IMG/VR virus record: IMGVR_UViG_3300020216_000004
Direction: 5' to 3' (one strand)
Length of the DNA: 12,569 nucleotides
DNA from: a virus
A program made the position numbers and the translations under genes. Positions within the stretch are counted from its first letter, which is position 1. Each line of letters begins with the position of its first letter. The notes below the pieces were generated by a model. That model was given only the letters and a program-made list of their open reading frames with translations. It had not been told where the DNA came from and ran no database searches. Below, piece by piece: positions 1 through 12,569 of the stretch.

Positions 1-576
1 CCCCTATTGTAAATTGTCAGACAATTCCCCATAACACATTAGAATATGATGAGTCAATAGATATGAGAGTAATATTAGTCAACACTAATTAAAATATAAT
101 AATAGAAAGATATGCAGTGGAAATGTATATAGAATAACTCAACAATAATAACAACTATAAATAATAAACTAGAATACTATAACACCAGTTAATTAGATAA
201 CTACTAGAAACACGATAACAACAGGTATGATAGAATACTATAAATAATAATATATAAATTAAATAAACTAAATTAAATAATAATAAATAATAACTATTAT
301 AAGATATCTGATAATTGAATATATACGAATAAATAAACTATATGAATTAGAGATAATAGTAATTAGGAATAATAATAATAGAAATGAATTAGAAGTGTAT
401 AGGAGGTGTTTGAATAGACAAGGTGAAGACTTACCTATCAAAGGTATTGAAACACTCACAACAAGCTTATATAGACTGTGAGATGTAGTATGTGATATAG
501 GTGTATGTAGATATAATAAAAGAAGTTATCTATAGAATTAACTATAAATAACCTCTTGTAATTTTGTATGGTTTAT
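1..576. repeat. Left inverted terminal repeat (ITR), 576 bp
   Basis: I reverse-complemented 1..576 in 60-nt blocks against 11994..12569 and found no mismatch. Identity ends at 577 (t) versus 11993 (c). The repeat starts at window base 1, so this looks like a true genome terminus. Confidence 0.95.
12..26. promoter_or_regulatory. Terminal palindrome AATTGTC-A-GACAATT, a candidate origin or protein-binding site (mirror copy at 12544..12558)
   Basis: Perfect 7-bp arms around a single central base. It is bracketed by CCCC at 1..4 and 27..30, and ATTGT is directly repeated at 6..10 and 13..17. It lies 11 nt from the genome end, where protein-primed replication origins are located. Confidence 0.4.
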
Positions 577-3500
577 TTAATTACTACTCCACTAGCAAGT
601 AACTGTTCTATGATATCTTTTTCATCTTCTGAAGCTGATATATCTAAGAATACATCAGATACTTCTACATAACCGTCTACTTCATGTAGGGTTACATAGT
701 CATTGGATTGCTTACCAAAGTCTGAGTTAGATTCATAAGGTATGTTTCTAATAACCTCAATGAATGGAGTTTCTAACTCGTTATGAATGTATCTACCAAT
801 CTCAGTTATTAGTGTATCTTTAGAAGACCTCATGAATGGTATCTCATGTGTTAATGGTATATCAGTTCTTGATACTAGCTTATTGCCTATCTTGCTACTG
901 TACACATTAAGGGTAGCTGTAGCATTGTATAGGTCTAACGATAGGGTAAGCTTGATATCTTGGTTAATAACATAGTCAGGGTCTATATAGATAGGCTGTT
1001 CATTGTATGGTACATGAATGTTAGTCTCAGTCTCCATATAGTCATAAACGTTGTGGTGCTCCTCTTCAACACGAATAGTTCCTAGGTCGAATAGAACCTT
1101 GTTATCTAACATGTAGTTAGCTTCTGCGTTCGATGTCCTTTGACCTATATTGATAGGTACTACTGCGTTACTAATCATCTCTTCAGGTAACTTAACAGGT
1201 AATGAATATAGGTTGTAGAAATAGTCTCCATAGTCTACTGTCTCACCGTTTACCAGGTCACCAAATCTATCTACACTTAAGGTGTTCAGTATAGACTGGT
1301 TAACAGGGTAGATATTAACGAAATTAGATACAAAACCGTCATAGGTCTTTTCTGAAGCTACTGCTGTAACTATAATCAGGGTAGTACCTGTGAATCGGTC
1401 TTCCCAGTACTCACCAATATTAAGAGTAAATACTGTCTTGTCTTCGTTAAAGTTAGGGTCTTCATCAGGGTATAAGTTAATTAAGTCAGGTGAATTATTA
1501 TCAAAGGTTCTAATGTCTAACTCAATACCTTCGTTGAATACAAAGCCATTATCAGCTGTAATTACAATAGTGTCCTCCTGGTTAACACCTCTACCTTCTG
1601 GAATGTTAGAGCTAGCGTTAACTAATTCTGACCCGAATCTGGCTCTAGGATAGCCTGCTATAGCTTCTACATGAATAGACTCTACTGTATCGGTAACTAA
1701 GGTGCTGAAGTCTAAACTTAATACTGTACCCTCTTCATTAAACTCTCCAGGTACTTCATGGAGCTTGTAGGAGACTTCTGAGCCATCTCCAAGGGTAACG
1801 GTAACCTCATGTAACTCAAAGCCTTCTAAAGCTTCATAATTGACTACAGTGAAGTTTGATACCGTATCGCTCTCGATACTTGATACTACGTTCTCTAATT
1901 CTTCGGTATACCCTACCTCAATTAACTCAGCTGTTGTAACCTGAATCTCTAAGGTAGTTAAGCCTGGTTCAAAGTATTCAGCAGGAATGATTTCAATTAC
2001 AGATTTACCTTCTACATCAGTTAAGTTTACTGTTTCATCATCACCGATTAAGGTAACTGAGTTCAGTATATAACCTTCATCAGAAGTAACTGTAATAGCT
2101 TGGTCTGGTTCTACCTCGATACCCTCTACATCTGTACTAGCGTTCTCTAACTCTTCATAGTACCGAATAGGGAAAGACTCTACAATCTCTTCCTGAGTGA
2201 TTACTGATATAGCAATGGTTAGATGGTCACCGTCTTCGAAATAGTCACCCCACTCGAATTTAACGTTACCATTCTGACCATATACTGGTAAGCTTACTGT
2301 CTCATAGGTATCTGGTGTACCAGGTGAACCTCCGAAACCGTTCCGTGGTGGCTCTCCATCAGTTCTCATGATTAACTCGATAGACTCGAAAGCGTGCGTG
2401 CTATAGGTCAGAACATCTACTGTATCGTTCTCATAGAGTCGTGTTACCCCATAGTAAGGGTAGTTCTCCCAAAACCCGCTTGAGTCTCCATTTACAGGCA
2501 TATCCCAGGTTACAGATTTAGGTGGCTTGTCACCTCTTACCTCTATAGCTGTGACTGGTTCTACTAATACCTCTTCGTCTATAACTTCCCTAGATACCTC
2601 TATACCGTCTTCATAGGTAATTAGAATTGTTAGGTTAGCTAATCCATCTGAACCCTCTATGTATTCTGTATCACCAATTAGAATCGTATCGTCATAGACT
2701 ACCTCTTCATCGTGAGGAATAACCTCTTCTACTGTGATAGTTTCTGTGGTAACTTCAGGCTCATAGTTAGGGTCTGCATAGGTGTATACCAACGTATCGA
2801 AACCTTGAAGCTCTCCAGGGTTAGGATAACCTCTACCTGGTGCATAGGTAAATTCTGTTTGCTCATATACGTTGTCGTCATCGTTAGGTATCTCAGCGTC
2901 CTGTACATCTAGTAACCAACCATCGTTAACTGTCCAAACATCTACTGAAATTGTGTCGAACGTATAACCAGGGTTAGCTCTAATTGTGATTGGTTGAGCC
3001 CATTGGTAAGTATCAGGTTCTACTGTATATGTATCATCATTCCCCTGCTTACTGATTGGTACAGGGTCATACGTTGGTTCTAACGTACCTATTACCTGGA
3101 TAGCATTAACAGGTTCTAACACTACCTCATACCCTATAACTTCCCTAGATACTTCTACACCGTCTTCTAAGGTAATCTCATAGGTAATACTCATGATACC
3201 CTCAGTACCCTCTATAAGCTCTTCCTCACCTACAGGCATAGTATCGTCTTCTACGGTATCTGTTTCATACTCTATTGGTTCTTCTATCGTCTCTTCTTCT
3301 ACAGTTATTACAGGTTCAGTCTGTACAGGTGTTACATAGATGTCAATAATCGTTAAGTCCGGGTAATAAGTAGTGTTACCATCTCGTAACTCATGTACGA
3401 TATAAGAGTTTGTAGGCTCGAAATATACTGTGTTAGCTTCTCTATCTACTTGGATATATTGAGGATATTCTGCGTCTGTGTATTTACCTCTAGCGTTGGT

Positions 3501-3752
3501 AATGTACCCTGAACCTAAGTCTTCTTCTACCTCTACTCTATCAATCGTGTAATCTTGACTAACGGTTAATATGTAATCATGGTGCCAATTAAAGCTTGTA
3601 GAAACCGATTGTGTATTCTCAACATTTACAACGATATCGTCTACATCTGTAGAGCCATCAGTATTAAACACGTTAAACTCTACATATTTGTCTGTACTCG
3701 TTGCTATGGGTCTAGTAGACTCTTTTTCACCGAATCTAAATGCAAGTGCCAT
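573..3752 (-). CDS. Large modular tail protein (1059 aa): repeated beta-rich modules plus two G5 domains, fused to a phi29 gp9-like tail-knob C-terminal domain
   Basis: Start is preceded by AGGAGGTTAAATA-ATG, with the SD embedded in the last codons of the upstream ORF. The C-terminal ~255 aa (about nt 576..1346) end in ...GYVEVSDVFLDISASEDEKDIIEQLLASGVVIK, resembling the phi29 gp9 C-terminus ...[33 protein letters not shown] (recalled). It is the last gene of the structural block. Its TAA stop (573..575) lies just inside the ITR. Confidence 0.8.
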   Translation of the reverse strand: MALAFRFGEKESTRPIATSTDKYVEFNVFNTDGSTDVDDIVVNVENTQSVSTSFNWHHDYILTVSQDYTIDRVEVEEDLGSGYITNARGKYTDAEYPQYIQVDREANTVYFEPTNSYIVHELRDGNTTYYPDLTIIDIYVTPVQTEPVITVEEETIEEPIEYETDTVEDDTMPVGEEELIEGTEGIMSITYEITLEDGVEVSREVIGYEVVLEPVNAIQVIGTLEPTYDPVPISKQGNDDTYTVEPDTYQWAQPITIRANPGYTFDTISVDVWTVNDGWLLDVQDAEIPNDDDNVYEQTEFTYAPGRGYPNPGELQGFDTLVYTYADPNYEPEVTTETITVEEVIPHDEEVVYDDTILIGDTEYIEGSDGLANLTILITYEDGIEVSREVIDEEVLVEPVTAIEVRGDKPPKSVTWDMPVNGDSSGFWENYPYYGVTRLYENDTVDVLTYSTHAFESIELIMRTDGEPPRNGFGGSPGTPDTYETVSLPVYGQNGNVKFEWGDYFEDGDHLTIAISVITQEEIVESFPIRYYEELENASTDVEGIEVEPDQAITVTSDEGYILNSVTLIGDDETVNLTDVEGKSVIEIIPAEYFEPGLTTLEIQVTTAELIEVGYTEELENVVSSIESDTVSNFTVVNYEALEGFELHEVTVTLGDGSEVSYKLHEVPGEFNEEGTVLSLDFSTLVTDTVESIHVEAIAGYPRARFGSELVNASSNIPEGRGVNQEDTIVITADNGFVFNEGIELDIRTFDNNSPDLINLYPDEDPNFNEDKTVFTLNIGEYWEDRFTGTTLIIVTAVASEKTYDGFVSNFVNIYPVNQSILNTLSVDRFGDLVNGETVDYGDYFYNLYSLPVKLPEEMISNAVVPINIGQRTSNAEANYMLDNKVLFDLGTIRVEEEHHNVYDYMETETNIHVPYNEQPIYIDPDYVINQDIKLTLSLDLYNATATLNVYSSKIGNKLVSRTDIPLTHEIPFMRSSKDTLITEIGRYIHNELETPFIEVIRNIPYESNSDFGKQSNDYVTLHEVDGYVEVSDVFLDISASEDEKDIIEQLLASGVVIK
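2529..2741 (-). other. G5 domain 2 within the tail protein (aa ~338-408)
   Basis: TITVEEVIPHDEEVVYDDTILIGDTEYIEGSDGLANLTILITYEDGIEVSREVIDEEVLVEPVTAIEVRGD is a paralogue of domain 1. The DNA also matches: 2581..2621 versus 3136..3176 agree at 37 of 41 nt (ATAACTTCCCTAGATAC...). Confidence 0.75.
3084..3311 (-). other. G5 domain 1 within the tail protein (aa ~148-223)
   Basis: VITVEEETIEEPIEYETDTVEDDTMPVGEEELIEGTEGIMSITYEITLEDGVEVSREVIGYEVVLEPVNAIQVIGT fits the G5 pattern: I-x-[FY]-x-T-x(3)-D-x(2)-[LM]-x(2)-G, then EG-x-x-G, Y-E-[IV]-T, DG-x-E-V-x-R-E-V, P-V-x-x-I-x-V-x-G-T. Confidence 0.75.
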
Positions 3753-3755
3753 TAT

Positions 3756-4187
3756 TTAACCTCCTATCGTTACTAAAATAATATTCTCTTCAAACTCTAG
3801 TGTTACATCGCTATCGTATATATCGTGAGTCTTCCTAACCTCACTTGGATAGTCTCCACCGTTATAATATGGGTTATGTCCTAAGTGTTTAGATACAACA
3901 CCCTTACAAGCTAGTATCTCATCTTTGAAGCTTTCTAATACGTCTACCTCTAAGATTAATCTGGATAGATTATTTCTTTGAGCTATGATATCCTTAACGA
4001 AATAGAAGCGTTCGAAATCTGGGATATAAGCATAATTTTTACTGGTACGCTCTCCTTCTTTTAGGAGTATTTCAGGGTTTAATACATCAGCTTCACCTCT
4101 GAATTGAACTTCATAGGTAGCTTCATCAGATAACTCTTTATTGATAGTGTTATTGGAGCTGGTTGTGTTATACAACTTTATTTCCAT
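3756..4187 (-). CDS. 143-aa tail protein resembling the N-terminal domain of the phi29 gp9 tail knob / distal tube protein
   Basis: SD AAGGAGGG lies upstream of the ATG. NYAYIPDFERFYFVKDIIAQRNNLSRLILEVDVLESF...GVVSKH...IILVTIGG parallels recalled gp9 [42 protein letters not shown]...FIVREH...MFLVIISKS. The ORF stops 3 nt before the start of the 1059-aa ORF. Confidence 0.65.
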   Translation of the reverse strand: MEIKLYNTTSSNNTINKELSDEATYEVQFRGEADVLNPEILLKEGERTSKNYAYIPDFERFYFVKDIIAQRNNLSRLILEVDVLESFKDEILACKGVVSKHLGHNPYYNGGDYPSEVRKTHDIYDSDVTLEFEENIILVTIGG

Positions 4188-4208
4188 GTGGTGTTACCCT
4201 CCTTAGTT

Positions 4209-4245
4209 ATAAAAAAATAGAGGTAGAGTTCCCCAACTCCACCCC
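4209..4245 (-). terminator. Rho-independent terminator downstream of the major capsid gene
   Basis: Minus-strand RNA reads GGGGUGGAGUU-GGGG-AACUCUACCUC, an 11-bp stem with two G-U pairs and a GGGG loop. It is followed directly by UAUUUUUUUAU. Confidence 0.7.
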
Positions 4246-4283
4246 TACAGGTAATAAAGCATGGCATTGCTTTATTGATTCTT

Positions 4284-5444
4284 TTAAGCTACAAGGAACA
4301 CAAGGAAGTTTTCATTTAAGTCATTGAAGTATCCTGCGTCCATCTTGTAATAGTTCGTGAAGAACTCGGCTTTAGCATTATAGTTTGAAGTAACTCGTCG
4401 GTCTAAGTTAGCAACTCCTACCGCTTGGCTATCAAACATAACTCCTAAGATTCCGGAAGCTTCTATTTCTGTATTTTTAGTAGCTACGTTAATTTTAGAT
4501 ACTGATTCAAAGTCATATGTATCTCCTGAACCTTGCCAGTATGGTACTGTTTCGTAATTAGGTAGCTGAACCATTTCACTATTATATGTATCTGATTGTA
4601 AGAATGTTTTAGTAGCACTTGCAAAGTCAGATAATAGAACAATAGTAACTTCTGATTCTGGTGTAAATTTCTCTTTCCCACCAACGTTAAATAATGTAGA
4701 AATCTTACTCATACGGTCTTTATATAGGTTAACTAAGTATGAAGCAAAACGAATAAATTCAGGGTCTCTATAGCTTTCATCTGGTGTTAGAGCTTCACCT
4801 GATTTTTCGTTGTATAATGCAAGTAAGTTAATTGCTTTAACTCCTGTTTGAGTTAAATCTAAAGTACCTTCAGCATTGGTTAAGTCATCTGATAATGTTT
4901 CAGCAGTCATATTGTTGATTGCTCTCATTACCAATCCATCTAGTTTAATAGTCATAGATTTCTCTACACCATTGAAAATCATAGTTAAGAATCCATTTAA
5001 TTGTTCTGCGTTTGAGAATGATTCTTTAACTTGTAATTCAGTAAATGAAATTGGTACTTCAAATGTTACCTTAGAGTTAAAGAACTTAGCTGATACCTTA
5101 GGTTGATAGAACACATCTTGGATATAACGCTGTCCATCCTCTAGAGCCCAAGACTCGTTCTCGTGTGCTTCAGGAATATCAGAAGAAATCTTTTCTAAGA
5201 TAGAACCATATTCCCAACCGTCCATAATTACACTAGGAACGTTACCTGAATAAACTCTATCATCAAAGATTACCTTACCAATATGGTTAACTAGTTTCTT
5301 TACATAGTTATCAATGTTATCTGAATCAATGATTTCATTACCAACATCTACAATGTTAGATAAGTCTTCTTGTACAACGTCTTCACGTCCTAAGACTTGT
5401 TCTGTAGCTGTATTCATAATGTCATGTATTTGCGTTACTCTCAT
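4284..5444 (-). CDS. Major capsid protein (386 aa), phi29 gp8-like HK97 fold
   Basis: The N-terminal region ...NIDNYVKKLVNHIGKVIFDDRVY... parallels recalled gp8 ...[22 protein letters not shown].... Its size and position in the structural block fit, and it is flanked by its own extended -10 element and a terminator, as expected for the most abundant virion protein. Confidence 0.8.
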   Translation of the reverse strand: MRVTQIHDIMNTATEQVLGREDVVQEDLSNIVDVGNEIIDSDNIDNYVKKLVNHIGKVIFDDRVYSGNVPSVIMDGWEYGSILEKISSDIPEAHENESWALEDGQRYIQDVFYQPKVSAKFFNSKVTFEVPISFTELQVKESFSNAEQLNGFLTMIFNGVEKSMTIKLDGLVMRAINNMTAETLSDDLTNAEGTLDLTQTGVKAINLLALYNEKSGEALTPDESYRDPEFIRFASYLVNLYKDRMSKISTLFNVGGKEKFTPESEVTIVLLSDFASATKTFLQSDTYNSEMVQLPNYETVPYWQGSGDTYDFESVSKINVATKNTEIEASGILGVMFDSQAVGVANLDRRVTSNYNAKAEFFTNYYKMDAGYFNDLNENFLVFLVA

Positions 5445-5475
5445 TATTCATTTCCCCTTTTTCTATTTTATATAT

Positions 5476-6096
5476 TTAATATACCAACGTACCAACCGTT
5501 TGACTTACATCTTGGAATATATTTTCTACTAAAACTTTGTTATTTAGATATCTAACTGCTTTCTCTCGGTCGTCGATAGCGTTGGAAGTATTTCCCTTAG
5601 TTTCAGAAGTCCTTGTTTCATTACCGCTTGTTATCTCTGAGTTGTCTCCAGTATTAGTACTACTTTGAGTGTTCTCGTCAGAGTCAGCAAAGTCTTCTGA
5701 GTTGTACCCTGCAACTGAATTAGTTTGCTTGTCATTACTAGTGTTAGAGTAGTCAGTAATGTTACTACTATCTGACTCAGTTTTTTCAGTTGTGGTTAGG
5801 TTATATGTCTCTAGTGGTATCTCAGCCTTATAAACTTCTGCAAGCTTATTCCATTTGTCAGCGTACATACCATATAACATACTAGCTATTAATTTTAAGT
5901 CTTCCTCTTTAACATTCTCTTTCTCTCCAATTAAGTTATTAACTAGGGGAGAAACCTTCCTGCTACCGTGTTGACTCACGAATAGCAGGTCAGTAGTTGA
6001 GATGTCTTGGAAGTCATTTAGGAGTTCTATATCACCAATCTCATTGAGATAGTGAAACAGACCTTTACCTTCTTTGTATAAGTCTCTTATATTCAT
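5476..6096 (-). CDS. 206-aa structural protein of uncertain role (lower-collar/adaptor or scaffold candidate)
   Basis: A clean ORF between the portal and capsid genes. It has an N-terminal helical-looking ~100 aa, a central ~70-aa S/T/N/D/E-rich low-complexity tract (TTEKTESDSSNITDYSNTSNDKQTNS...TSGNETRTSETKGNTSN), and a short conserved-looking C-terminus. Its position after the portal matches gp11, and its position before the capsid matches gp7. Confidence 0.6.
   Translation of the reverse strand: MNIRDLYKEGKGLFHYLNEIGDIELLNDFQDISTTDLLFVSQHGSRKVSPLVNNLIGEKENVKEEDLKLIASMLYGMYADKWNKLAEVYKAEIPLETYNLTTTEKTESDSSNITDYSNTSNDKQTNSVAGYNSEDFADSDENTQSSTNTGDNSEITSGNETRTSETKGNTSNAIDDREKAVRYLNNKVLVENIFQDVSQTVGTLVY
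5478..5486 (-). promoter_or_regulatory. Extended -10 element TGGTATATT upstream of the capsid gene
   Basis: The minus strand reads TTGGTATATTAA and overlaps the last codons and stop of the 206-aa ORF. The capsid SD (AAGGGG) and ATG lie about 20-35 nt downstream. It is one of four TGnTATATT copies, all at gene junctions. Confidence 0.5.
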
Positions 6097-6118
6097 ACCC
6101 TTATTACTCCCTATCTAT

Positions 6119-6127
6119 AATATAGCA
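6119..6127 (-). promoter_or_regulatory. Extended -10 element TGCTATATT upstream of the 206-aa gene
   Basis: The minus strand reads TTGTGCTATATTATAGATAGGGAG in the 82-nt portal/206-aa intergenic gap, with the SD 7 nt downstream of the hexamer. No convincing -35 is present. Confidence 0.5.
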
Positions 6128-6178
6128 CAAAGGCTACTTTAAAATTTGATAGTAGAGGTGCGTTCTAACAACGCTAGA

Positions 6179-7525
6179 TTACTCTACTTCTACTTCTTCC
6201 TTGTCTTCTTCTTCCTCTTCTTCAGGTTCTTCTAGAATCTCTTCTAAGTCTTCTACTAAGTCCTCTTTGTCTTCCTCTTCAACTGGTTCATCAGTCTCTA
6301 AGGTTTCCTCTAAGTCCTCTTCAAAGTCTTCTACATCCTCTTTAAGCTCTACATCCTCAATATCTACAGTATCTTGTTCAGGTAACTCTTCTACTTCCTG
6401 CTCAGGTAGTTCTTCAGAAGTATCTTGAATAGGTAAGTCCTCTACTTCTTGTTCAGGTAGTTCTGAGTCGTATTCTAGGTCTAATATAACCTCTTCAGTT
6501 TCTTCTACAGGGTTAACTTCATCTTGCTCCTCAAACTCTTCAGAAGCCTCATAATCACCTTTTAAGAAACTGTCAGAAATCTCTCTAGCTTCATCTATAC
6601 TGATACCTTCATTACCTTCTTCGTTAAGCGTGTTAACCTCGTCTTGGTTCTCTCTATAGTCAGTCCATGAAGAGCTTAGCTTAACTGTAATGTTTTGGTC
6701 GAACATCTCGTTAACCTCTTCTATAGCTTCCTTACGATGGGATAACATATCATCAATTAGAGGGTATAAGCTTTCACTATTTACCTGTACTTCATCAGTA
6801 ATTAAACGCTCTTTCTTCATGTTGTTATTAGCATTTAAACCAATCTCGTTGTACATAGTAGCTTTAAGGTACTGTTGAAACTCTACAAGGTCACTAATAT
6901 TAGTTTTAGAACCTTCACCAACTGCGTTTGATTTCAAACTATCGAATAGCTTATTCTCAAAGATATATCCTAAGTTACCCTTTTCAATGTTATCTAAGTA
7001 CTCTTTAGCTGACTCAGCTGTATTATCATCAGCAACCGAAATCATGTTATTGATACGGTTATTGAATGTAGTTAACATCATAGTAATCTCATTTTCATTC
7101 ATGAAAGTACCATACTTAGAGTAGATAGGAACTAACCCCATAAGCATATAGTCATTTTTCATAAGTACTATGTCTTCACCAATTTTAAGGTTACCATTGT
7201 AGTTAAGGTAAGGGTTTGAGACTGTAAATAAAGTTGGTTTTCCATATACGTTAGGCTCTCCACCTAGTCCACCATAGAAGGCATATAGTTCTCCTTCTAC
7301 CTTAGTTAACCCCGCGTAACCGTTTGTCTGTAGCAGGCGTTCTAACTCTTTAGCAGGTAGTGAATCGGGTAACCCTTCATACTCAAACATCTGTAAAGAC
7401 CTGTTAAGCATGTAGTTTACATGGTTTCTTACGTTGATTTGCTTATCATCATACTGGTACTTAATACCTTTAATACCATTGTATAAGCCCCAATCATATC
7501 GCTCATTGTATTTGCTTTTACTCAT
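6179..7525 (-). CDS. Portal / upper collar connector (448 aa), phi29 gp10-like core plus a polyacidic C-terminal extension
   Basis: LQMFEYEGLPDSLP parallels recalled gp10 YQLFEWENLPPTINP, and NMKKERLITDEV parallels LEKKERMVTDEV. The start is AAGGAGCGTATAT-ATG, overlapping the ATPase stop. The homologous core ends near aa 285, and aa 291-448 are about half Asp/Glu. Confidence 0.9.
   Translation of the reverse strand: MSKSKYNERYDWGLYNGIKGIKYQYDDKQINVRNHVNYMLNRSLQMFEYEGLPDSLPAKELERLLQTNGYAGLTKVEGELYAFYGGLGGEPNVYGKPTLFTVSNPYLNYNGNLKIGEDIVLMKNDYMLMGLVPIYSKYGTFMNENEITMMLTTFNNRINNMISVADDNTAESAKEYLDNIEKGNLGYIFENKLFDSLKSNAVGEGSKTNISDLVEFQQYLKATMYNEIGLNANNNMKKERLITDEVQVNSESLYPLIDDMLSHRKEAIEEVNEMFDQNITVKLSSSWTDYRENQDEVNTLNEEGNEGISIDEAREISDSFLKGDYEASEEFEEQDEVNPVEETEEVILDLEYDSELPEQEVEDLPIQDTSEELPEQEVEELPEQDTVDIEDVELKEDVEDFEEDLEETLETDEPVEEEDKEDLVEDLEEILEEPEEEEEEDKEEVEVE
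6365..6466 (-). repeat. Tandem 2 x 51-nt (17-aa) repeat inside the acidic portal tail
   Basis: SELPEQEVEDLPIQDTS is followed by EELPEQEVEELPEQDTV (aa 354-387). On the plus strand, 6388..6413 and 6439..6464 match at 23 of 26 nt. Confidence 0.85.
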
Positions 7526-7536
7526 ATATACGCTCC

Positions 7537-8667
7537 TTATAGTTGTTTACTAACGTTTAAGTAGTTATTAACTGAATCTCCTACATCATTATCTTGATAG
7601 AACACTTTATCAGTATCAAAGAAATACTTAATGTTTTTACCTAGCTTGTTAACTGGTTTATGAATACTTCTTTGATAGTTGAACTTGTGACTGAACTCTA
7701 AGCTGTAAATGATGTCTTCGTCTTCATCCTTGATTGGTGTTGTCTTATCATGAATGAATGTAAACATCTCATTATCTACCTCTATGATTTCACATTGATA
7801 AATGAATCCATCAAACTTAATAAAGTAGGTTAGTAAGATATCTTTAGCTTTATATTTAACTGGTAAGTGAGGGTAGATATCTAATTCCCATGCACCATCT
7901 GTAATCATGTTTAACTTAGGGTTATCAAAGGCAAAGTAGAAGTTATTCTTTTTATTTTTTGATGTTGATTGTGCATACTCTACTGCTACCTTTAAGTTAG
8001 AATCCCCATATGTGTAGAGGTCTATAGTTCCCTGGTCTTGCTTATGGATATGCTTAAGCCCCATCTCGTTAAAGTAAGGGCTGTACTTATTAACCGTGTT
8101 ACCTAGCATGAATATCGTTACATCTTTACGTTGGCGTATAATCGTACTCAACGTATTCATGAAGAGTACAAACTCATCCTTTAAGTACATACCTCTGGTT
8201 AAGAACTCATCAAAGAGTATTGTCTTAATATTAGGGTAAGAGAATGATTTGTTATGTTCTGTATCTGACAAAGCAAACACATAGGCAAAGATATCACTAT
8301 CGCTGTATACCGCTCTACCTTCATCATCGTAGTTACAGAAGTAGAATCTACCTGAGTAATAGGTAATACCTTCAAACTTACCATCACTAATCTTATAGAT
8401 TTCATCGTTGGCAATTAGGGCACTAAAGATTTCACTAGCTCTTTTACCCTTAATGTCTTCTTGCCACCGTCTAAGGAGGGCTAACTGCCCGCCATTTTCA
8501 AAGTATACCTCTATAGCATGCTTCAGTACTGCGTATGTCTTACCATTGGAACGTTCCCCGAATATAACGTTATAAACTGCTTTTTTAGATAGAATAGCGT
8601 TCAGGTTATAGTAGCTATCCTGTTTATTTTTAGGTTTGTCTTTTTTGCTTGTATCTGTTTGTACCAT
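7537..8667 (-). CDS. DNA encapsidation ATPase, phi29 gp16-like (376 aa from the preferred start)
   Basis: Walker A is GERSNGKT (8536..8559). Walker B YPNIKTILFDEFL matches recalled gp16 YPNVSTIVFDEFI, and NKYSPYF matches VVNPYF. I prefer the ATG at 8665..8667 (GGAGGTTATCAG-ATG) over the ORF-track ATG at 8709. The 8709 start has no SD and lies upstream of the TGCTATATT element at 8690..8698. Confidence 0.9.
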   Translation of the reverse strand: MVQTDTSKKDKPKNKQDSYYNLNAILSKKAVYNVIFGERSNGKTYAVLKHAIEVYFENGGQLALLRRWQEDIKGKRASEIFSALIANDEIYKISDGKFEGITYYSGRFYFCNYDDEGRAVYSDSDIFAYVFALSDTEHNKSFSYPNIKTILFDEFLTRGMYLKDEFVLFMNTLSTIIRQRKDVTIFMLGNTVNKYSPYFNEMGLKHIHKQDQGTIDLYTYGDSNLKVAVEYAQSTSKNKKNNFYFAFDNPKLNMITDGAWELDIYPHLPVKYKAKDILLTYFIKFDGFIYQCEIIEVDNEMFTFIHDKTTPIKDEDEDIIYSLEFSHKFNYQRSIHKPVNKLGKNIKYFFDTDKVFYQDNDVGDSVNNYLNVSKQL

Positions 8668-8689
8668 CTGATAACCTCCATCACTATAT

Positions 8690-8698
8690 AATATAGCA
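8690..8698 (-). promoter_or_regulatory. Extended -10 element TGCTATATT upstream of the ATPase gene
   Basis: The minus strand reads CAGGTGCTATATTATATAGTGATGGAGG, between the polymerase stop (8724) and the ATPase SD (8675..8679). Confidence 0.5.
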
Positions 8699-8723
8699 CC
8701 TGAGTTCATCTAATCTGCTTAGA

Positions 8724-10865
8724 CTAGATAGCCCTTGTTAGTTTCTCACCTTCATAGATATACCCTTTACGGTATCTTTCAATCAATTGAGTTTGTTTCT
8801 CTAAAGGTGATAACGTAAATTCAGCATTCTCTAGGTGTATACCTGATTTAGTGTAGACTGCTTCTTTTACCCCTCTATAATCGGTTATCACAAACTGCTT
8901 AATGTCATCAATGTAAACGTGATTCATATTACCTGTATCTTCAGCAGGGATAGATAAGCTCTTATTAAAGTTGTTAAACACGTTCGTGTTGTCTCCAAAG
9001 GTTCTCTGAAGGTAAGATAAGCCCTTGTCCTTACTTAAGCCTGCTAAGGTCATTTCTAGGTCTCCTGTAGCCTTATCTTCAACTAGATACTGCTTAGCTC
9101 CTAGTGCTTTAAAACGGCTGTATTTACCGTCTAATTCCCATGTACCTATAAGTTTCTTTTCACCGTATTTGTTCTCGGGTCTAAGTCTCTCAAAGTCTAT
9201 CGTGAAAGACTCATCACTAACGGGTTTATTTAGGGTATCTACCATCTTCTTAAGCTTCATTTCAATCATCTTGTTATACTGTTCAAAGAAGCCTTCATGC
9301 TTCTCAGGTTCTTTAAGCTTAACTGCGTCTGTATCTGAGTAAACATAGTCATCTTTAAGGTTCAGGATAGCCACCCAAAGGTTTCTGCGGGCATAGGCTG
9401 TTGTCCATACACCCCAAGGGTAATATAAGAAGCGGGAGTGCTTGGTGTTGTATTTCTCAATCTGTTTATCAGGAGTCTCTTCTTCTATGTCCTCAGTCTC
9501 TTCAAAGTCAGGCTGTTTTCTAACTACATCTGTAACGGTCATACCGTATACTGAGTTAAGCATTTCCTTGCTTAGTAAATACTCAGTTTGTCGGTCAGGA
9601 ACGCCTTTATTGATTGTTTTTTTCTCATATAATGTTATAATAGACTTAATAAGGTTTCTAGGTAGATAGTCCTTTTTGAACCTATAAACATTGGCTATTT
9701 GCATAGATTCCCAATCATAGACTTTTTGAATAATCTCAAAGTCTACATCTGTAATTGTGGTTACCAGTTCATCAGCCGAAAACACTCTACCGTTATTTAC
9801 AATCGGTTTTTTAACAACATGGCATTTTGACTCTGATATGTAGTTCTCAAAATCAATCTTACTGATAAGGTCTTTGAATCTTACATCAAAGAGTAAGGCA
9901 TAGCCCTGCTTGATATAATGGTTTAAGTCCTTATCCTTTGTTAGCTTGGTACTGATTCCTTCACTCATAGGGAACTGTTCAGATAGCATAGCGGCAGGGT
10001 AAGAGCTTATCAGGTCATAACTGGCTACATCCTCAATTACCTCATTAGCATAGCTTGGATTAGCGTGTGTGAAACCACCCATAAATCCATCCTTGCTCTT
10101 TTCGTATACATCTCTAGTTAACTGAAGCTTAAGCATTAAGTTTCTATAGTCTGTACGTTTACCCCTACTCGTTTTCTTGTGGTCGGTATTCGTGTAATAA
10201 CAGTTGTGTCGAATGTAATTTCTAACTCTAGCTGTATTGGTTAACGGTATCTTGGATATATTCCCGTATATCCTTCTTTGTTCGTTAATGTAATACAGTA
10301 TAATTAGTACATCATTTCTCATGTACTCTAGCTCTTTAGTGAATAGTACTGTGTTCTGGTGTCTTACCTTAGTATAATCAAGTTCACCTTTGAGTTTCTT
10401 AATCTCATGGTGTACAAGGCTGTCAGCTACATCTGACAAGCTTTTACCGCTTAGTATATAACTATCACGAAACTCTATACCTGATTTAGTGGTGGCTGTG
10501 ATTGGTTTCCTGCTGTCAGTTCCGAAAACTTGCTTCCAGGTAAACCATTTTCTCATGAACTGAAATTCATAAGATAAGTTATGTATATAAACGATAAGCC
10601 TTCTATCTTCCTTTAAGTTGTAAAACTTTTGTAGATAGTTGACTAGTTCACGGAATTGCTTCCAAGTCCTTCCATGAACGATATTCTCATTATTCTTTAT
10701 TCCGAAAGTCCAGGCATACATGAAACCAACTTTTTCACCATCTACAATGGTAGAAGTTGTTTCAACATCGAATGCACATTCAATGTCTACATATGTAGCG
10801 TTGCCTTTTCTTTTGTTTGATTTTATTTCTTTGTGGTCTATGTCTTCCAAATTTAAACCATACAT
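8724..10865 (-). CDS. Protein-primed family-B DNA polymerase (713 aa), phi29 gp2-like
   Basis: Motifs seen: Exo I AFDVETT; Exo II IHNLSYEFQF; Exo III YMRNDVLII; motif A DLISSYPAAM; motif B KEMLNSVYG; motif C YSDTDA (9324..9341, checked at the DNA level); KxY GAKQYLV. Long inserts between motifs A-B and B-C sit where phi29 has TPR1 and TPR2. Confidence 0.95.
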   Translation of the reverse strand: MYGLNLEDIDHKEIKSNKRKGNATYVDIECAFDVETTSTIVDGEKVGFMYAWTFGIKNNENIVHGRTWKQFRELVNYLQKFYNLKEDRRLIVYIHNLSYEFQFMRKWFTWKQVFGTDSRKPITATTKSGIEFRDSYILSGKSLSDVADSLVHHEIKKLKGELDYTKVRHQNTVLFTKELEYMRNDVLIILYYINEQRRIYGNISKIPLTNTARVRNYIRHNCYYTNTDHKKTSRGKRTDYRNLMLKLQLTRDVYEKSKDGFMGGFTHANPSYANEVIEDVASYDLISSYPAAMLSEQFPMSEGISTKLTKDKDLNHYIKQGYALLFDVRFKDLISKIDFENYISESKCHVVKKPIVNNGRVFSADELVTTITDVDFEIIQKVYDWESMQIANVYRFKKDYLPRNLIKSIITLYEKKTINKGVPDRQTEYLLSKEMLNSVYGMTVTDVVRKQPDFEETEDIEEETPDKQIEKYNTKHSRFLYYPWGVWTTAYARRNLWVAILNLKDDYVYSDTDAVKLKEPEKHEGFFEQYNKMIEMKLKKMVDTLNKPVSDESFTIDFERLRPENKYGEKKLIGTWELDGKYSRFKALGAKQYLVEDKATGDLEMTLAGLSKDKGLSYLQRTFGDNTNVFNNFNKSLSIPAEDTGNMNHVYIDDIKQFVITDYRGVKEAVYTKSGIHLENAEFTLSPLEKQTQLIERYRKGYIYEGEKLTRAI

Positions 10866-10883
10866 TAAAGTCTCACCCCTAAC

Positions 10884-11453
10884 CTACATGTCGAACCAAT
10901 CCCAGGTATTAATTTCATTCTCAATGTTCACCTGGTCAGCTTTAGCTTCTTCTATAAGAGCTTCTAGGTGGTCGCTTAGTTCACCTATTTCCAATCCTTC
11001 TCGTTCAGCATAGTTATTGATAAGAGCCCATCTTTCCTGGTACTCCATATATGTTGAATCCGGGTCGTTCTTTTGGTACTGCTCTAGCTTAGAAGCTACA
11101 TCAGCTGTCTCTTTAATCTTATTAGGTAAGTCTCTAATAGAGTTATACTTAATACCCATTCTATCAGCGGTATCTTTAAGTACTCTATTTGCTCCCCTTA
11201 CAAGGCTTGTCTTGGAGTTTAAGAAGTTATCTACCCTGTTGAGTTCTTTTCTAAGTACGTTAACATCAGTTCCCGCTGATGAAAATCGTTCTCCTCCACG
11301 GTAGTTATTCTCATTACTCCAAGACCTGTAAGCAGGCAAGCCTGTTAAGTCATTCTCTTCCAATCGCTTTAACCGTTTATTGGCTTTAGACACCTTACCT
11401 CTTAGTTCATCGGTTAATCGTTTAGCTTCACCTTCCAGTTTTAGCTTCATCAT
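10884..11453 (-). CDS. Candidate terminal (priming) protein, 189 aa
   Basis: It lies immediately upstream of the protein-primed polymerase, as in phi29, Cp-1, PRD1 and Bam35. The start has a strong SD (AAGGAGGAGTTTAATGA-ATGATG). The N-terminus is basic (KVSKANKRLKRLEE) and the C-terminus is acidic and helical. Resemblance to recalled phi29 gp3 is only weak. Confidence 0.5.
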   Translation of the reverse strand: MMKLKLEGEAKRLTDELRGKVSKANKRLKRLEENDLTGLPAYRSWSNENNYRGGERFSSAGTDVNVLRKELNRVDNFLNSKTSLVRGANRVLKDTADRMGIKYNSIRDLPNKIKETADVASKLEQYQKNDPDSTYMEYQERWALINNYAEREGLEIGELSDHLEALIEEAKADQVNIENEINTWDWFDM

Positions 11454-11468
11454 TCATTAAACTCCTCC

Positions 11469-11735
11469 TTATATCTCGAATACATTACTGATAAAGACCT
11501 TCTTATTAAGACCTTTACTGAGGTTATAGTAATGATAGAGGTAATCTATACTGTTGGCATTTCCATGCTCGAAAGCTGATACACTCTTGATGTTAAGGTC
11601 AGTTAACTCTCCAAAATCAGTTAGAGATAACCTTAAGTAATCCTCTCGATACTTCTTACAGAACCTACCTATCTTCTTCATACGTTGTTTCTTATCGTAT
11701 TTACCTACATTCTCTTTAGTAAGTGTGTTATCCAT
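11469..11735 (-). CDS. XRE-like helix-turn-helix DNA-binding protein (88 aa)
   Basis: IGRFCKKYREDYLRLSLTDFGELTDLNIKSVSAFEHGNANS fits the HTH_3/Cro-C1 pattern (R-x(3)-L-S-x(3)-[FL]-x(4)-[VIL]-x(3)-[VIL]-S-x-[FIW]-E-x-G). The start is GGAGGATTAAC-ATG. It is the second gene of the early transcription unit. Confidence 0.6.
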   Translation of the reverse strand: MDNTLTKENVGKYDKKQRMKKIGRFCKKYREDYLRLSLTDFGELTDLNIKSVSAFEHGNANSIDYLYHYYNLSKGLNKKVFISNVFEI

Positions 11736-11745
11736 GTTAATCCTC

Positions 11746-11868
11746 CTATTTAATAGTTTCCCAGTATTCCATCAATTCTACATAAGCAAGTAATCCACCT
11801 GCTGTAAACTTCGCATTACTACGCTCACATAACTTCTTGTAGTCGAATATCATCTGTACGTTAACCAT
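11746..11868 (-). CDS. Small 40-aa ORF, first gene of the early unit (absent from the supplied ORF track)
   Basis: I translated it by hand as MVNVQMIFDYKKLCERSNAKFTAGGLLAYVELMEYWETIK. The start is AAGGAGGTATTGA-ATG. Its TAG stop abuts the SD of the HTH gene. No family was recognised. Confidence 0.45.
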   Translation of the reverse strand: MVNVQMIFDYKKLCERSNAKFTAGGLLAYVELMEYWETIK

Positions 11869-11901
11869 TCAATACCTCCTTGTCTATGACCTCTTATACC
11901 T

Positions 11902-11930
11902 AATATAGCATAACTACTCTAGTAATCTAA
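11902..11930 (-). promoter_or_regulatory. Candidate early promoter: TTAGAT, 17-nt spacer, (TGC)TATATT
   Basis: The minus strand reads TTCTTAGATTACTAGAGTAGTTATGCTATATTAGG, about 27 nt upstream of the SD of the first ORF. A consensus TTGACA also lies further upstream (11951..11956) but has no good -10 partner. Confidence 0.5.
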
Positions 11931-11993
11931 GAATAGGATAATTATTCTAATGTCAATAGAACACTGCGTACAGATATACAATTACAGTATACC

Positions 11994-12569
11994 ATAAACC
12001 ATACAAAATTACAAGAGGTTATTTATAGTTAATTCTATAGATAACTTCTTTTATTATATCTACATACACCTATATCACATACTACATCTCACAGTCTATA
12101 TAAGCTTGTTGTGAGTGTTTCAATACCTTTGATAGGTAAGTCTTCACCTTGTCTATTCAAACACCTCCTATACACTTCTAATTCATTTCTATTATTATTA
12201 TTCCTAATTACTATTATCTCTAATTCATATAGTTTATTTATTCGTATATATTCAATTATCAGATATCTTATAATAGTTATTATTTATTATTATTTAATTT
12301 AGTTTATTTAATTTATATATTATTATTTATAGTATTCTATCATACCTGTTGTTATCGTGTTTCTAGTAGTTATCTAATTAACTGGTGTTATAGTATTCTA
12401 GTTTATTATTTATAGTTGTTATTATTGTTGAGTTATTCTATATACATTTCCACTGCATATCTTTCTATTATTATATTTTAATTAGTGTTGACTAATATTA
12501 CTCTCATATCTATTGACTCATCATATTCTAATGTGTTATGGGGAATTGTCTGACAATTTACAATAGGGG
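11994..12569. repeat. Right inverted terminal repeat (ITR), 576 bp
   Basis: Exact reverse complement of 1..576 and ends at the last base of the window. The identical 63-aa ORF reported at 268..459(-) and 12111..12302(+) is a by-product of this repeat. Confidence 0.95.
12095..12123 (-). promoter_or_regulatory. Weak inward-facing promoter candidate inside the ITR: TTGAAA, 17-nt spacer, TATAGA (mirror copy 447..475 on the plus strand)
   Basis: Sequence match only. At the right end it would read toward the early genes. At the left end the mirror copy would read antisense into the 3' end of the tail gene. Confidence 0.25.

Follow-up and report, generated by a model that had tools for sequence, protein, structure and literature searches.

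A probable gp9-type tail knob divided between two genes, with a long G5-bearing insert, in a 12.6-kb phi29-like podophage genome

Tail knobs of the phi29 gp9 type are single polypeptides of 574-599 amino acids (aa) that carry no lateral modules. The long hydrophobic loop of phi29 gp9 reportedly forms a membrane pore. A second kind of knob, made from two genes, is described for Phanie, Astrid, DU_PP_III and a gut metagenome-assembled genome (MAG) in a review (Evseev et al. 2024, PMC11476376) that cites Pourcel et al. (J Virol 2024). In this account, one protein is similar to the N-terminal region of phi29 p9 and the other is similar, at its C-terminus, to the C-terminal region, with Ig-like domains in variable number between the two (PMC11476376). 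AlphaFold 3 (AF3) 6+6 models for Astrid, DU_PP_III and Phanie place the Ig-like domains laterally (PMC11476376). The review further places the origin of the split, as a proposal, in the ancestor of the phi29-like phages that infect Gram-negative hosts (Evseev et al. 2024, PMC11476376), and states that Phanie is non-infectious unless attached to the tail of a helper myophage (PMC11476376). Here we describe a knob locus of this kind in the viral record IMGVR_UViG_3300020216_000004 (12,569 nucleotides (nt), the window below), in which a 143-aa open reading frame (ORF) is followed by a 1059-aa ORF. A two-gene knob with an insert is thus already published for relatives, and the phage in the window is a new, unusually elaborate example.

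The window is a complete linear 12.6-kb phi29-like podophage of an Astrithrvirus-like lineage. Perfect inverted terminal repeats (ITRs) of 576 bp each, at 1-576 and 11994-12569, indicate that the genome (12,569 bp, 35.6% G+C, sizeable ORFs all on the minus strand) is complete. Pfam and PHROG matches to a phi29-type major capsid protein (MCP), a portal ("upper collar connector"), a gp16-type packaging ATPase and a protein-primed family-B DNA polymerase (PolB) identify it as a phi29-like podophage. No near-identical phage was found in GenBank when the whole genome was compared with phages by megablast. The closest cultured relatives at the protein level are the 11-12-kb phages astrithr, Astrid and assan (Salmonella), DU_PP_III (Pectobacterium), Entb_47 (Enterobacter) and Phanie (Acinetobacter). 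The gene order of astrithr and Phanie matches that of the window, which has the Astrithrvirus-type layout: a protein-primed genome of 11-13 kb in which PolB, gp16 ATPase, portal, MCP and knob follow one another. The knob gene comes next to that of the capsid protein and directly behind it, the position that gp9 occupies in phi29. In addition to gene order and genome size class, the window shares with Astrithrvirus and Phanie a protein of ~145 aa, a homologous C-terminus of ~250 aa, variable beta-domain modules between them, a short polar segment in the place of the loop and a lack of fibre genes. There are also differences. First, the insert is 805 aa long here, compared with ~320 aa in astrithr and ~595 aa in Phanie. 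Secondly, it contains two G5 domains and has no detectable similarity to their inserts. Third, no peptidoglycan hydrolase gene follows the large gene, unlike in astrithr, Phanie and most relatives. Lastly, the 576-bp ITRs are a difference from both.

The first-pass annotation of this DNA, made from the sequence alone, reported two ORFs 3 nt apart, the second with its own Shine-Dalgarno (SD) sequence inside the last codons of the first, and took them for a real gene fission rather than a sequencing frameshift. The arrangement is read directly from the sequence (Table 1). The two ORFs share a frame, the gap between them is 3 nt, and a strong SD lies 7 nt upstream of the ATG of the 1059-aa ORF. 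With only TAA-ATA between two ORFs in the same frame, faulty sequencing or assembly, or a new nonsense mutation in one knob gene, could have produced an artefact or a recent pseudogene, and in one relative (L058, 102+329 aa) a fused gene does seem to have undergone a simple frameshift. However, the relatives collected from IMG/VR and genome bins, about 125 loci, speak against this. The family of the 143-aa protein comprises 106 stand-alone clusters, all of 97-234 aa and almost all of 139-152 aa. The split form occurs at the same place on more than 50 independent contigs (41 from IMG/VR and about 17 from genome bins), each with a small gene followed by a large gene that ends in the same ~250-aa domain. 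Since the junctions on these contigs vary between -41 and +12 nt and are mostly out of frame, they do not stem from one shared sequencing error. In addition, the second ORF has a perfect SD, an independent assembly of the Joint Genome Institute (JGI) is identical here and contains the same two genes (99.97% identity), and the cultured relatives are split likewise. An artefact or pseudogene is effectively refuted by these observations, and we assign it next to no probability. The 143-aa and 1059-aa genes are a stable gene fission with an insertion, as first proposed.

The in-frame TAA also admits readthrough or recoding, which would yield a fused knob of ~1204 aa, alone or beside the separate products, and the second ORF does begin in frame 3 nt past the TAA. 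TAA is the usual stop codon of the genome, where it ends seven of ten ORFs, and the second ORF has its own SD and ATG. The junctions of the relatives are mostly out of frame or overlapping. The in-frame arrangement is therefore not conserved, and readthrough of the TAA is not a conserved feature. We regard readthrough as very improbable.

Both products are tied to gp9 by relatives in which the knob is a single ORF. A comparison of relatives for fused and split versions, suggested in the first-pass annotation, recovered both forms and intermediates between them. The single-ORF (fused) form was found at 40 IMG/VR loci and on about 20 genome-bin contigs, mostly as proteins of 438-546 aa (e.g. L041-L082 and P0109-P0228). 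The first ~100-140 residues of the fused ORFs match the 143-aa protein (its residues 1-93/138). Their last ~280 residues are matched, in the first iteration, by a C-domain profile made from split proteins only (E 1e-17 to 5e-7). The two parts abut, with the end of the N part at ~150 and the start of the C part at ~155. When the fused family was compared with the gp9 family by hhalign, the match had Prob 96.5% and P 9e-10, and a relaxed maximum-accuracy (MAC) alignment paired fused positions 17-438 with gp9 45-583. A second profile comparison gave Prob 94.8% over 382 columns. The 143-aa protein corresponds to the N part of the fused proteins, aa 806-1059 of the large protein correspond to their C part, and the fused proteins correspond to gp9; thus, both halves are tied to gp9, and the homology to gp9-type knobs runs through the fused relatives. 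The fused knobs belong to uncultured podophages of ~12-14 kb, the same kind of genome as the window, and match its proteins in both the N and the C domain. Unlike the knob described here, they have one ORF, no insert and a Gly/Ala/Ser-rich loop of 66-95 aa.

Direct comparisons of the 143-aa protein point in the same direction. It is 30-35% identical to astrithr gp09 and Phanie gp9 (tblastn, 31-35% over 99-100% of the query, E 1e-11 to 3e-18). A profile of its family (60 members) was run against 177,635 PDB sequences, and the knobs of C1 (E 0.032) and phi29 (E 0.17) were the best two matches; a shared N-terminal motif, ...YxFV...(D)V(L)..., underlies both alignments. In hhalign against the gp9-family alignment, residues 45-102 paired with gp9 70-132 (Prob 76-80%, P about 1e-5). 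The AlphaFold2 (AF2) model of the protein had a predicted local distance difference test (pLDDT) score of 78, and Foldseek matched it to the knobs of phi29 (5fb4/5fb5, prob 1.00), C1 (4eo2, 0.99) and Andhra (8egs, 0.93), with E about 0.03. The resemblance to the gp9 N-terminus noticed at first is therefore better than chance but remote, and the protein is best described as a remote homologue of the gp9 N-terminal domain. On gp9 the break lies at about residues 180-205, in line with the "first ~190 aa" of the first-pass annotation.

The C-terminal domain of the large protein is conserved in position and sequence. Astrithr gp10 and Phanie gp10 share, at their own C-termini, 25-30% identity with residues 813-1059 (E 1e-8 to 4e-21). 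At the 41 IMG/VR loci where a small homologue is followed by a large ORF, the ~250-aa domain is always at the extreme C-terminus. A C-domain profile from split proteins only matched gp9 over the last ~70 residues at P 7e-4 to 3e-3. With fused relatives included, hhalign against the gp9 family gave Prob 93% and E 3e-7 over the last ~90 columns, and aa ~983-1059 aligned with gp9 residues ~486-584. The AF2 model of the domain had a pLDDT of 82, and its Foldseek matches in BFVD were only its own family, the top one being an Astrid protein (E 8e-22). The last ~255 aa of the large ORF had been said to resemble the rest of gp9. The extent, ~250 aa, and the profile match support that statement, whereas a Foldseek search of the PDB did not. 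The profile alignment of both ORFs with gp9, proposed as a check, was positive for the N half, and for the C half it reached its higher score after the fused relatives had been added. The gp9 evidence for the C-terminal half is thus weaker than that for the N-terminal half, because Foldseek did not recover gp9.

Several results weigh against a gp9 origin and leave room for another explanation, in which neither product is a fragment of gp9: the smaller would be a neck, adaptor or tail-terminator-like protein in its own right, and the larger a fibre or spike with a new anchor of its own. The best single Foldseek match of the 143-aa model was the SaPI1 neck protein (E 0.011). A siphophage stopper-terminator scores as well, the fold of the model being the generic one of tail tubes and terminators. 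For the C-domain model, Foldseek against the PDB returned no gp9-type or knob structure. Curated gp9 models in Pfam and PHROG detect neither ORF: the 143-aa protein had no Pfam match at E<=0.1 (Caud_tail_N, PF16838) and no PHROG match at E<=0.01 (PHROG 2248), and the 1059-aa protein had neither a PF20934 (phi29_gp9_C) Pfam match nor a PHROG match. By comparison, phi29 gp9 and C1 gp12 match the Caud_tail_N and PHROG 2248 models strongly, and otherwise only astrithr gp09 touches phrog_2248 (E 0.027). Neither ORF had a relevant match among PDB sequences in phmmer, the C-domain profile gave no significant hmmsearch match to phi29 gp9 or C1 gp12, and hmmsearch of the fused-family hidden Markov model (HMM) against PDB sequences found no knob. 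The direct link of the C half to gp9 rests on the profile-profile alignment over its last ~90 columns and on transitivity through the fused family. Also, the binding role of the G5 and other modules is drawn from the annotation of G5 proteins.

However, a neck protein and a separate fibre do not account for the single-ORF relatives, which join exactly these two domains in one protein, or for the alignment of this fused protein with the gp9 family over nearly its full length (Prob 95-96%). The phi29, C1 and Andhra knobs match the model of the N domain at prob 0.93-1.00, the C profile reaches the gp9 C-terminus at Prob 93%, and the gene stands right after the capsid gene, as phi29 gp9 does. For these reasons, we consider the neck and fibre explanation unlikely, and we think it quite probable that the locus encodes a gp9-homologous knob built from two gene products, with the arm on the distal one and with the loop lost. 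With the knobs of phi29 (5FB4, 5FB5), C1 (gp12, 4EO2), Andhra (8EGS) and P68, this knob shares the N-terminal tube fold, the capsid-adjacent gene and, by profile alignment, the C-terminal motif block. It differs in being made of two proteins, of 143 and 1059 aa.

A gp9-homologous knob of two products would be assembled as follows. Six copies of the 143-aa protein would presumably form a proximal ring with a tail-tube fold that docks under the collar, and the distal part of the knob would come from the C-terminal ~250 aa of the 1059-aa protein, likewise in six copies. The break would fall in a linker between two beta-strands, where '...ILVTIGG' ends the first ORF and 'VSNFVNIY...' begins the C domain. 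In the fused relatives the strands that flank the break are only about 10 residues apart. The break would free the N-terminus of the distal fragment, which would bear the 805-aa chain with the modules in the order A, G5, B, G5, C, D, E, F. The arms may project sideways as six monomers and may bind glycans or the cell wall. They would be the only adhesin or receptor-binding device of the phage, because the genome has no fibre or appendage gene. Since a TAA stop precedes the second ORF, which has an SD to itself, the two genes would be translated separately, and their expression is probably coupled.

Table 1. Coordinates of the two knob genes, their junction and the segments of the large product in the 12,569-nt window
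Feature	Position	Strand	Description or basis
Gene of the putative proximal knob fragment, 143 aa	3756..4187	-	ORF; counterpart of the first ~180-205 residues of gp9 (tail-tube-fold domain)
Junction of the two ORFs	3750..3765	-	SD AGGAGG (3765-3760), t, stop TAA (3758-3756), ATA, start ATG (3752-3750); read from sequence
Gene of the 1059-aa protein	573-3752	-	ORF
Arm module A (aa 1-145), unique, N-terminal, presumably distal	3318..3752	-	No Pfam match; unlike the inserts of relatives
G5 domain 1 (aa ~146-226)	3075..3317	-	Pfam PF07501; internal repeat z=21
Arm module B (aa 227-336), 'GY.F' motif	2745..3074	-	Weak similarity to module D (z 4.4)
G5 domain 2 (aa ~337-410)	2523..2744	-	Pfam PF07501; internal repeat z=21
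Arm module C (aa 411-520), unique	2193..2522	-	No Pfam match
Arm modules D, E and F (aa 521-805), ~90 aa each, adjoining the knob domain	1338..2192	-	Pairwise z 6.6-8.4
Putative C-terminal knob domain, ~250 aa (aa 806/811-1059)	576..1337	-	Match to C-termini of astrithr and Phanie gp10, to fused relatives and to the gp9 profile
Site of the missing loop (aa 971-1008)	729..842	-	38-aa polar segment, 11% Gly/Ala/Ser, 26% charged

The insert had been described as repeat modules, and this holds for part of it. Self-BLAST of the arm found no repeats, and the modules were scored against each other by Smith-Waterman with shuffled sequences as controls. The two G5 domains are clear repeats and lie above the Pfam gathering threshold (101.3 bits against a cut-off of 23, E 3.4e-29, in two stretches), and a weak mutual similarity connects modules D, E and F. 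Modules A and C have no detectable repeat or relative. Pfam searches of four separate arm segments at E<=10 returned nothing. The base composition of the insert, judged by GC and GC3, is not foreign.

At 805 aa the insert is the longest seen. In the 41 IMG/VR loci with a split knob, the knob domain is preceded by 15-575 unrelated aa (median 381), and the inserts of relatives are variable and mutually unrelated. The insert showed no similarity at E<=1 to the corresponding region in the ~125 relative loci. Among 37 inserts searched with Pfam, only that of this phage contained G5, and five contained domains of the InlB-B-repeat type. The arm was also searched against 1.84 billion representatives, which gave 642 proteins at E<=0.001, mostly through G5. 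The best cellular matches were G5 proteins of Streptococcus suis and Fundicoccus. The arm is thus like Gram-positive G5 surface proteins (PF07501) in its two G5 domains, at about 38% identity to the G5 repeats, and unlike them in that the G5 domains belong to a putative virion protein and alternate with unrelated modules. Seven of the 642 matches were other split-knob proteins. G5 and module B are shared with P0231 (metagenomic; module B with G5-2), P0317 and P0351. Modules D-F are shared with P0246, P0247, P0256 and P0271, where they likewise stand just before the knob domain.

The N-termini of the large proteins are unconserved among relatives, and no hidden knob strand was found there. Thus, the C-terminal domain is the anchor and the N-terminus is the free end. 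An arm that serves as a swappable adhesin or host-range module would fit these results, and a receptor-binding role of its modules is suggested by analogy with G5 proteins.

The loop of gp9 can be followed across the relatives. All fused relatives have a hydrophobic segment of 66-95 aa with 30-43% Gly/Ala/Ser and few charges, which is flanked by the conserved blocks 'QIGVPIQL' and 'GRPLC' and corresponds to gp9 ~438-500 in the alignment. In astrithr, Phanie, this phage and their close kin, a polar segment of 35-43 residues takes its place. The first-pass annotation had judged by eye that the Gly/Ala/Ser-rich loop of gp9 was missing, and the alignment with fused relatives and gp9 bears this out. 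Since a membrane-inserting loop of the gp9 type has been lost in the clade, DNA delivery would have to work differently from that of phi29.

Loss of the loop is specific to this clade and is not tied to the split: the split form with the loop retained is found in L017-L038, L025/L031 and L076. Other relatives show other parts of the change. For example, L076 (152+311 aa, second ORF with its own SD; 5929-7333) and L142 (159+318 aa) are split and have no insert, and they are only about 25-32% identical to each other. L146 (874 aa) and L149 (825 aa) are single ORFs with an insert, the extra sequence lying before and after the C domain. Because forms with only some of the changes exist, fission, insertion and loop loss are separable events.

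The locus confirms the published architecture, and in this respect its direct value is modest. New here are the longest arm, the G5 domains, the absence of a lysin gene, the intermediates between fused and split knobs, and the separate loss of the loop. The metagenomic relatives supply forms that are missing from the published picture, namely fused, split without insert, fused with insert, split with insert and loop, and split with insert and without loop. With this series, the order of fission, module capture and loop loss becomes testable on a tree.

The remaining genes bear on how the phage would use its knob. All 9-10 ORFs of the complete genome are accounted for by the ORF list, Pfam and PHROG, and none of them is a fibre, appendage or spike gene, in agreement with the lack of separate fibre genes stated in the first-pass annotation. 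Pfam and PHROG scans of the complete genome found no peptidoglycan hydrolase, endolysin, holin or recognisable lysis gene. The 1059-aa gene reaches the left ITR, its stop codon being ITR bases 573-575, and only the ITR lies downstream. Among relatives, CHAP, amidase, M15 or glucosaminidase domains were found in nine of ten scanned ORFs downstream of the large knob gene, and CW_7 repeats accompany several of these. As in the window, a hydrolase gene after the large gene is absent from L003 and L004, its two closest relatives. Two other relatives (L007, at 10417-11313, and L009) have a 298-aa ORF downstream of the knob genes, in the lysin position of other relatives, with a weak match to sigma-70 region 2 (E 4e-4).

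With no fibre and no lysin, the window has the barest tail set so far in the group, which raises the question of how, or with whose help, the phage enters and leaves the cell. Having lost the knob loop and all hydrolase and lysis genes, it may be unable to penetrate or lyse a cell alone. It could then be a helper-dependent 'satellite' podophage like Phanie, in a Firmicute-type setting, with six G5-bearing arms of 805 aa that may grip the tail of a helper phage or hold the virion on the wall until the helper acts. We offer this as a speculative and rather doubtful reading. If it is true, a knob that is split and lacks the loop would be the sign of a satellite lifestyle that is widespread, and has mostly gone unrecognised, among the smallest tailed phages.

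Clues to the host are few. MAG bins with relatives are mostly Clostridia, lysins of close relatives carry CW_7, and the nearest cellular G5 matches come from Lactobacillales, whereas the described Astrithrvirus-type phages infect Gram-negatives. The G5 domains, CW_7 repeats and bins point weakly to Firmicutes. One relative occurs in a Herbiconiux isolate assembly; its contig has 45% GC, presumably unlike the genus, and is a weak host clue. On this slender evidence, the split knob may not be confined to phages that infect Gram-negatives.

One fused-type relative, L143, lies at 23817-36116 of a 327,727-nt contig of a Christensenella sp. MAG (CAJUGI010000002.1). This copy could be integrated or co-assembled; integration would be unusual for protein-primed linear phages.

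Other features of the genome lie outside the knob locus. The portal (448 aa) has an extremely acidic C-terminal extension of ~150 aa (6179-6650, minus strand) past the Pfam connector domain (aa 31-284), with near-repeats such as ELPEQEVE(D/E)LP.QDT and runs of Glu. A scaffold-like role and a DNA-mimic role are both possibilities for this extension; no separate scaffold gene was evident in the genome by Pfam and PHROG scans. The 206-aa ORF between the portal and capsid genes (5476-6096, minus strand) has no Pfam family and has a weak PHROG match of unknown function. The literature gives this phage group a shortened lower-collar protein, and this ORF is the only candidate for it.

The ITRs are long for a phi29-like genome. 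Each holds a hydrophobic 63-aa ORF with a GTG start, at 268-459 on the minus strand and at 12111-12302 on the plus strand, in very AT-rich surroundings. These ORFs are probably spurious; alternatively, they may encode a small membrane or lysis protein. The independent JGI assembly (L126; JGI 3300009048, Ga0116604_10136, 30,772 nt; locus 1-2117) contains positions 277-12071 of the genome at 99.97% identity. It departs from the phage sequence 78 nt inside the right ITR and continues in a truncated transketolase gene and a cyclase gene. The join is most likely a chimeric assembly at the repeat, the alternative being a real linkage.

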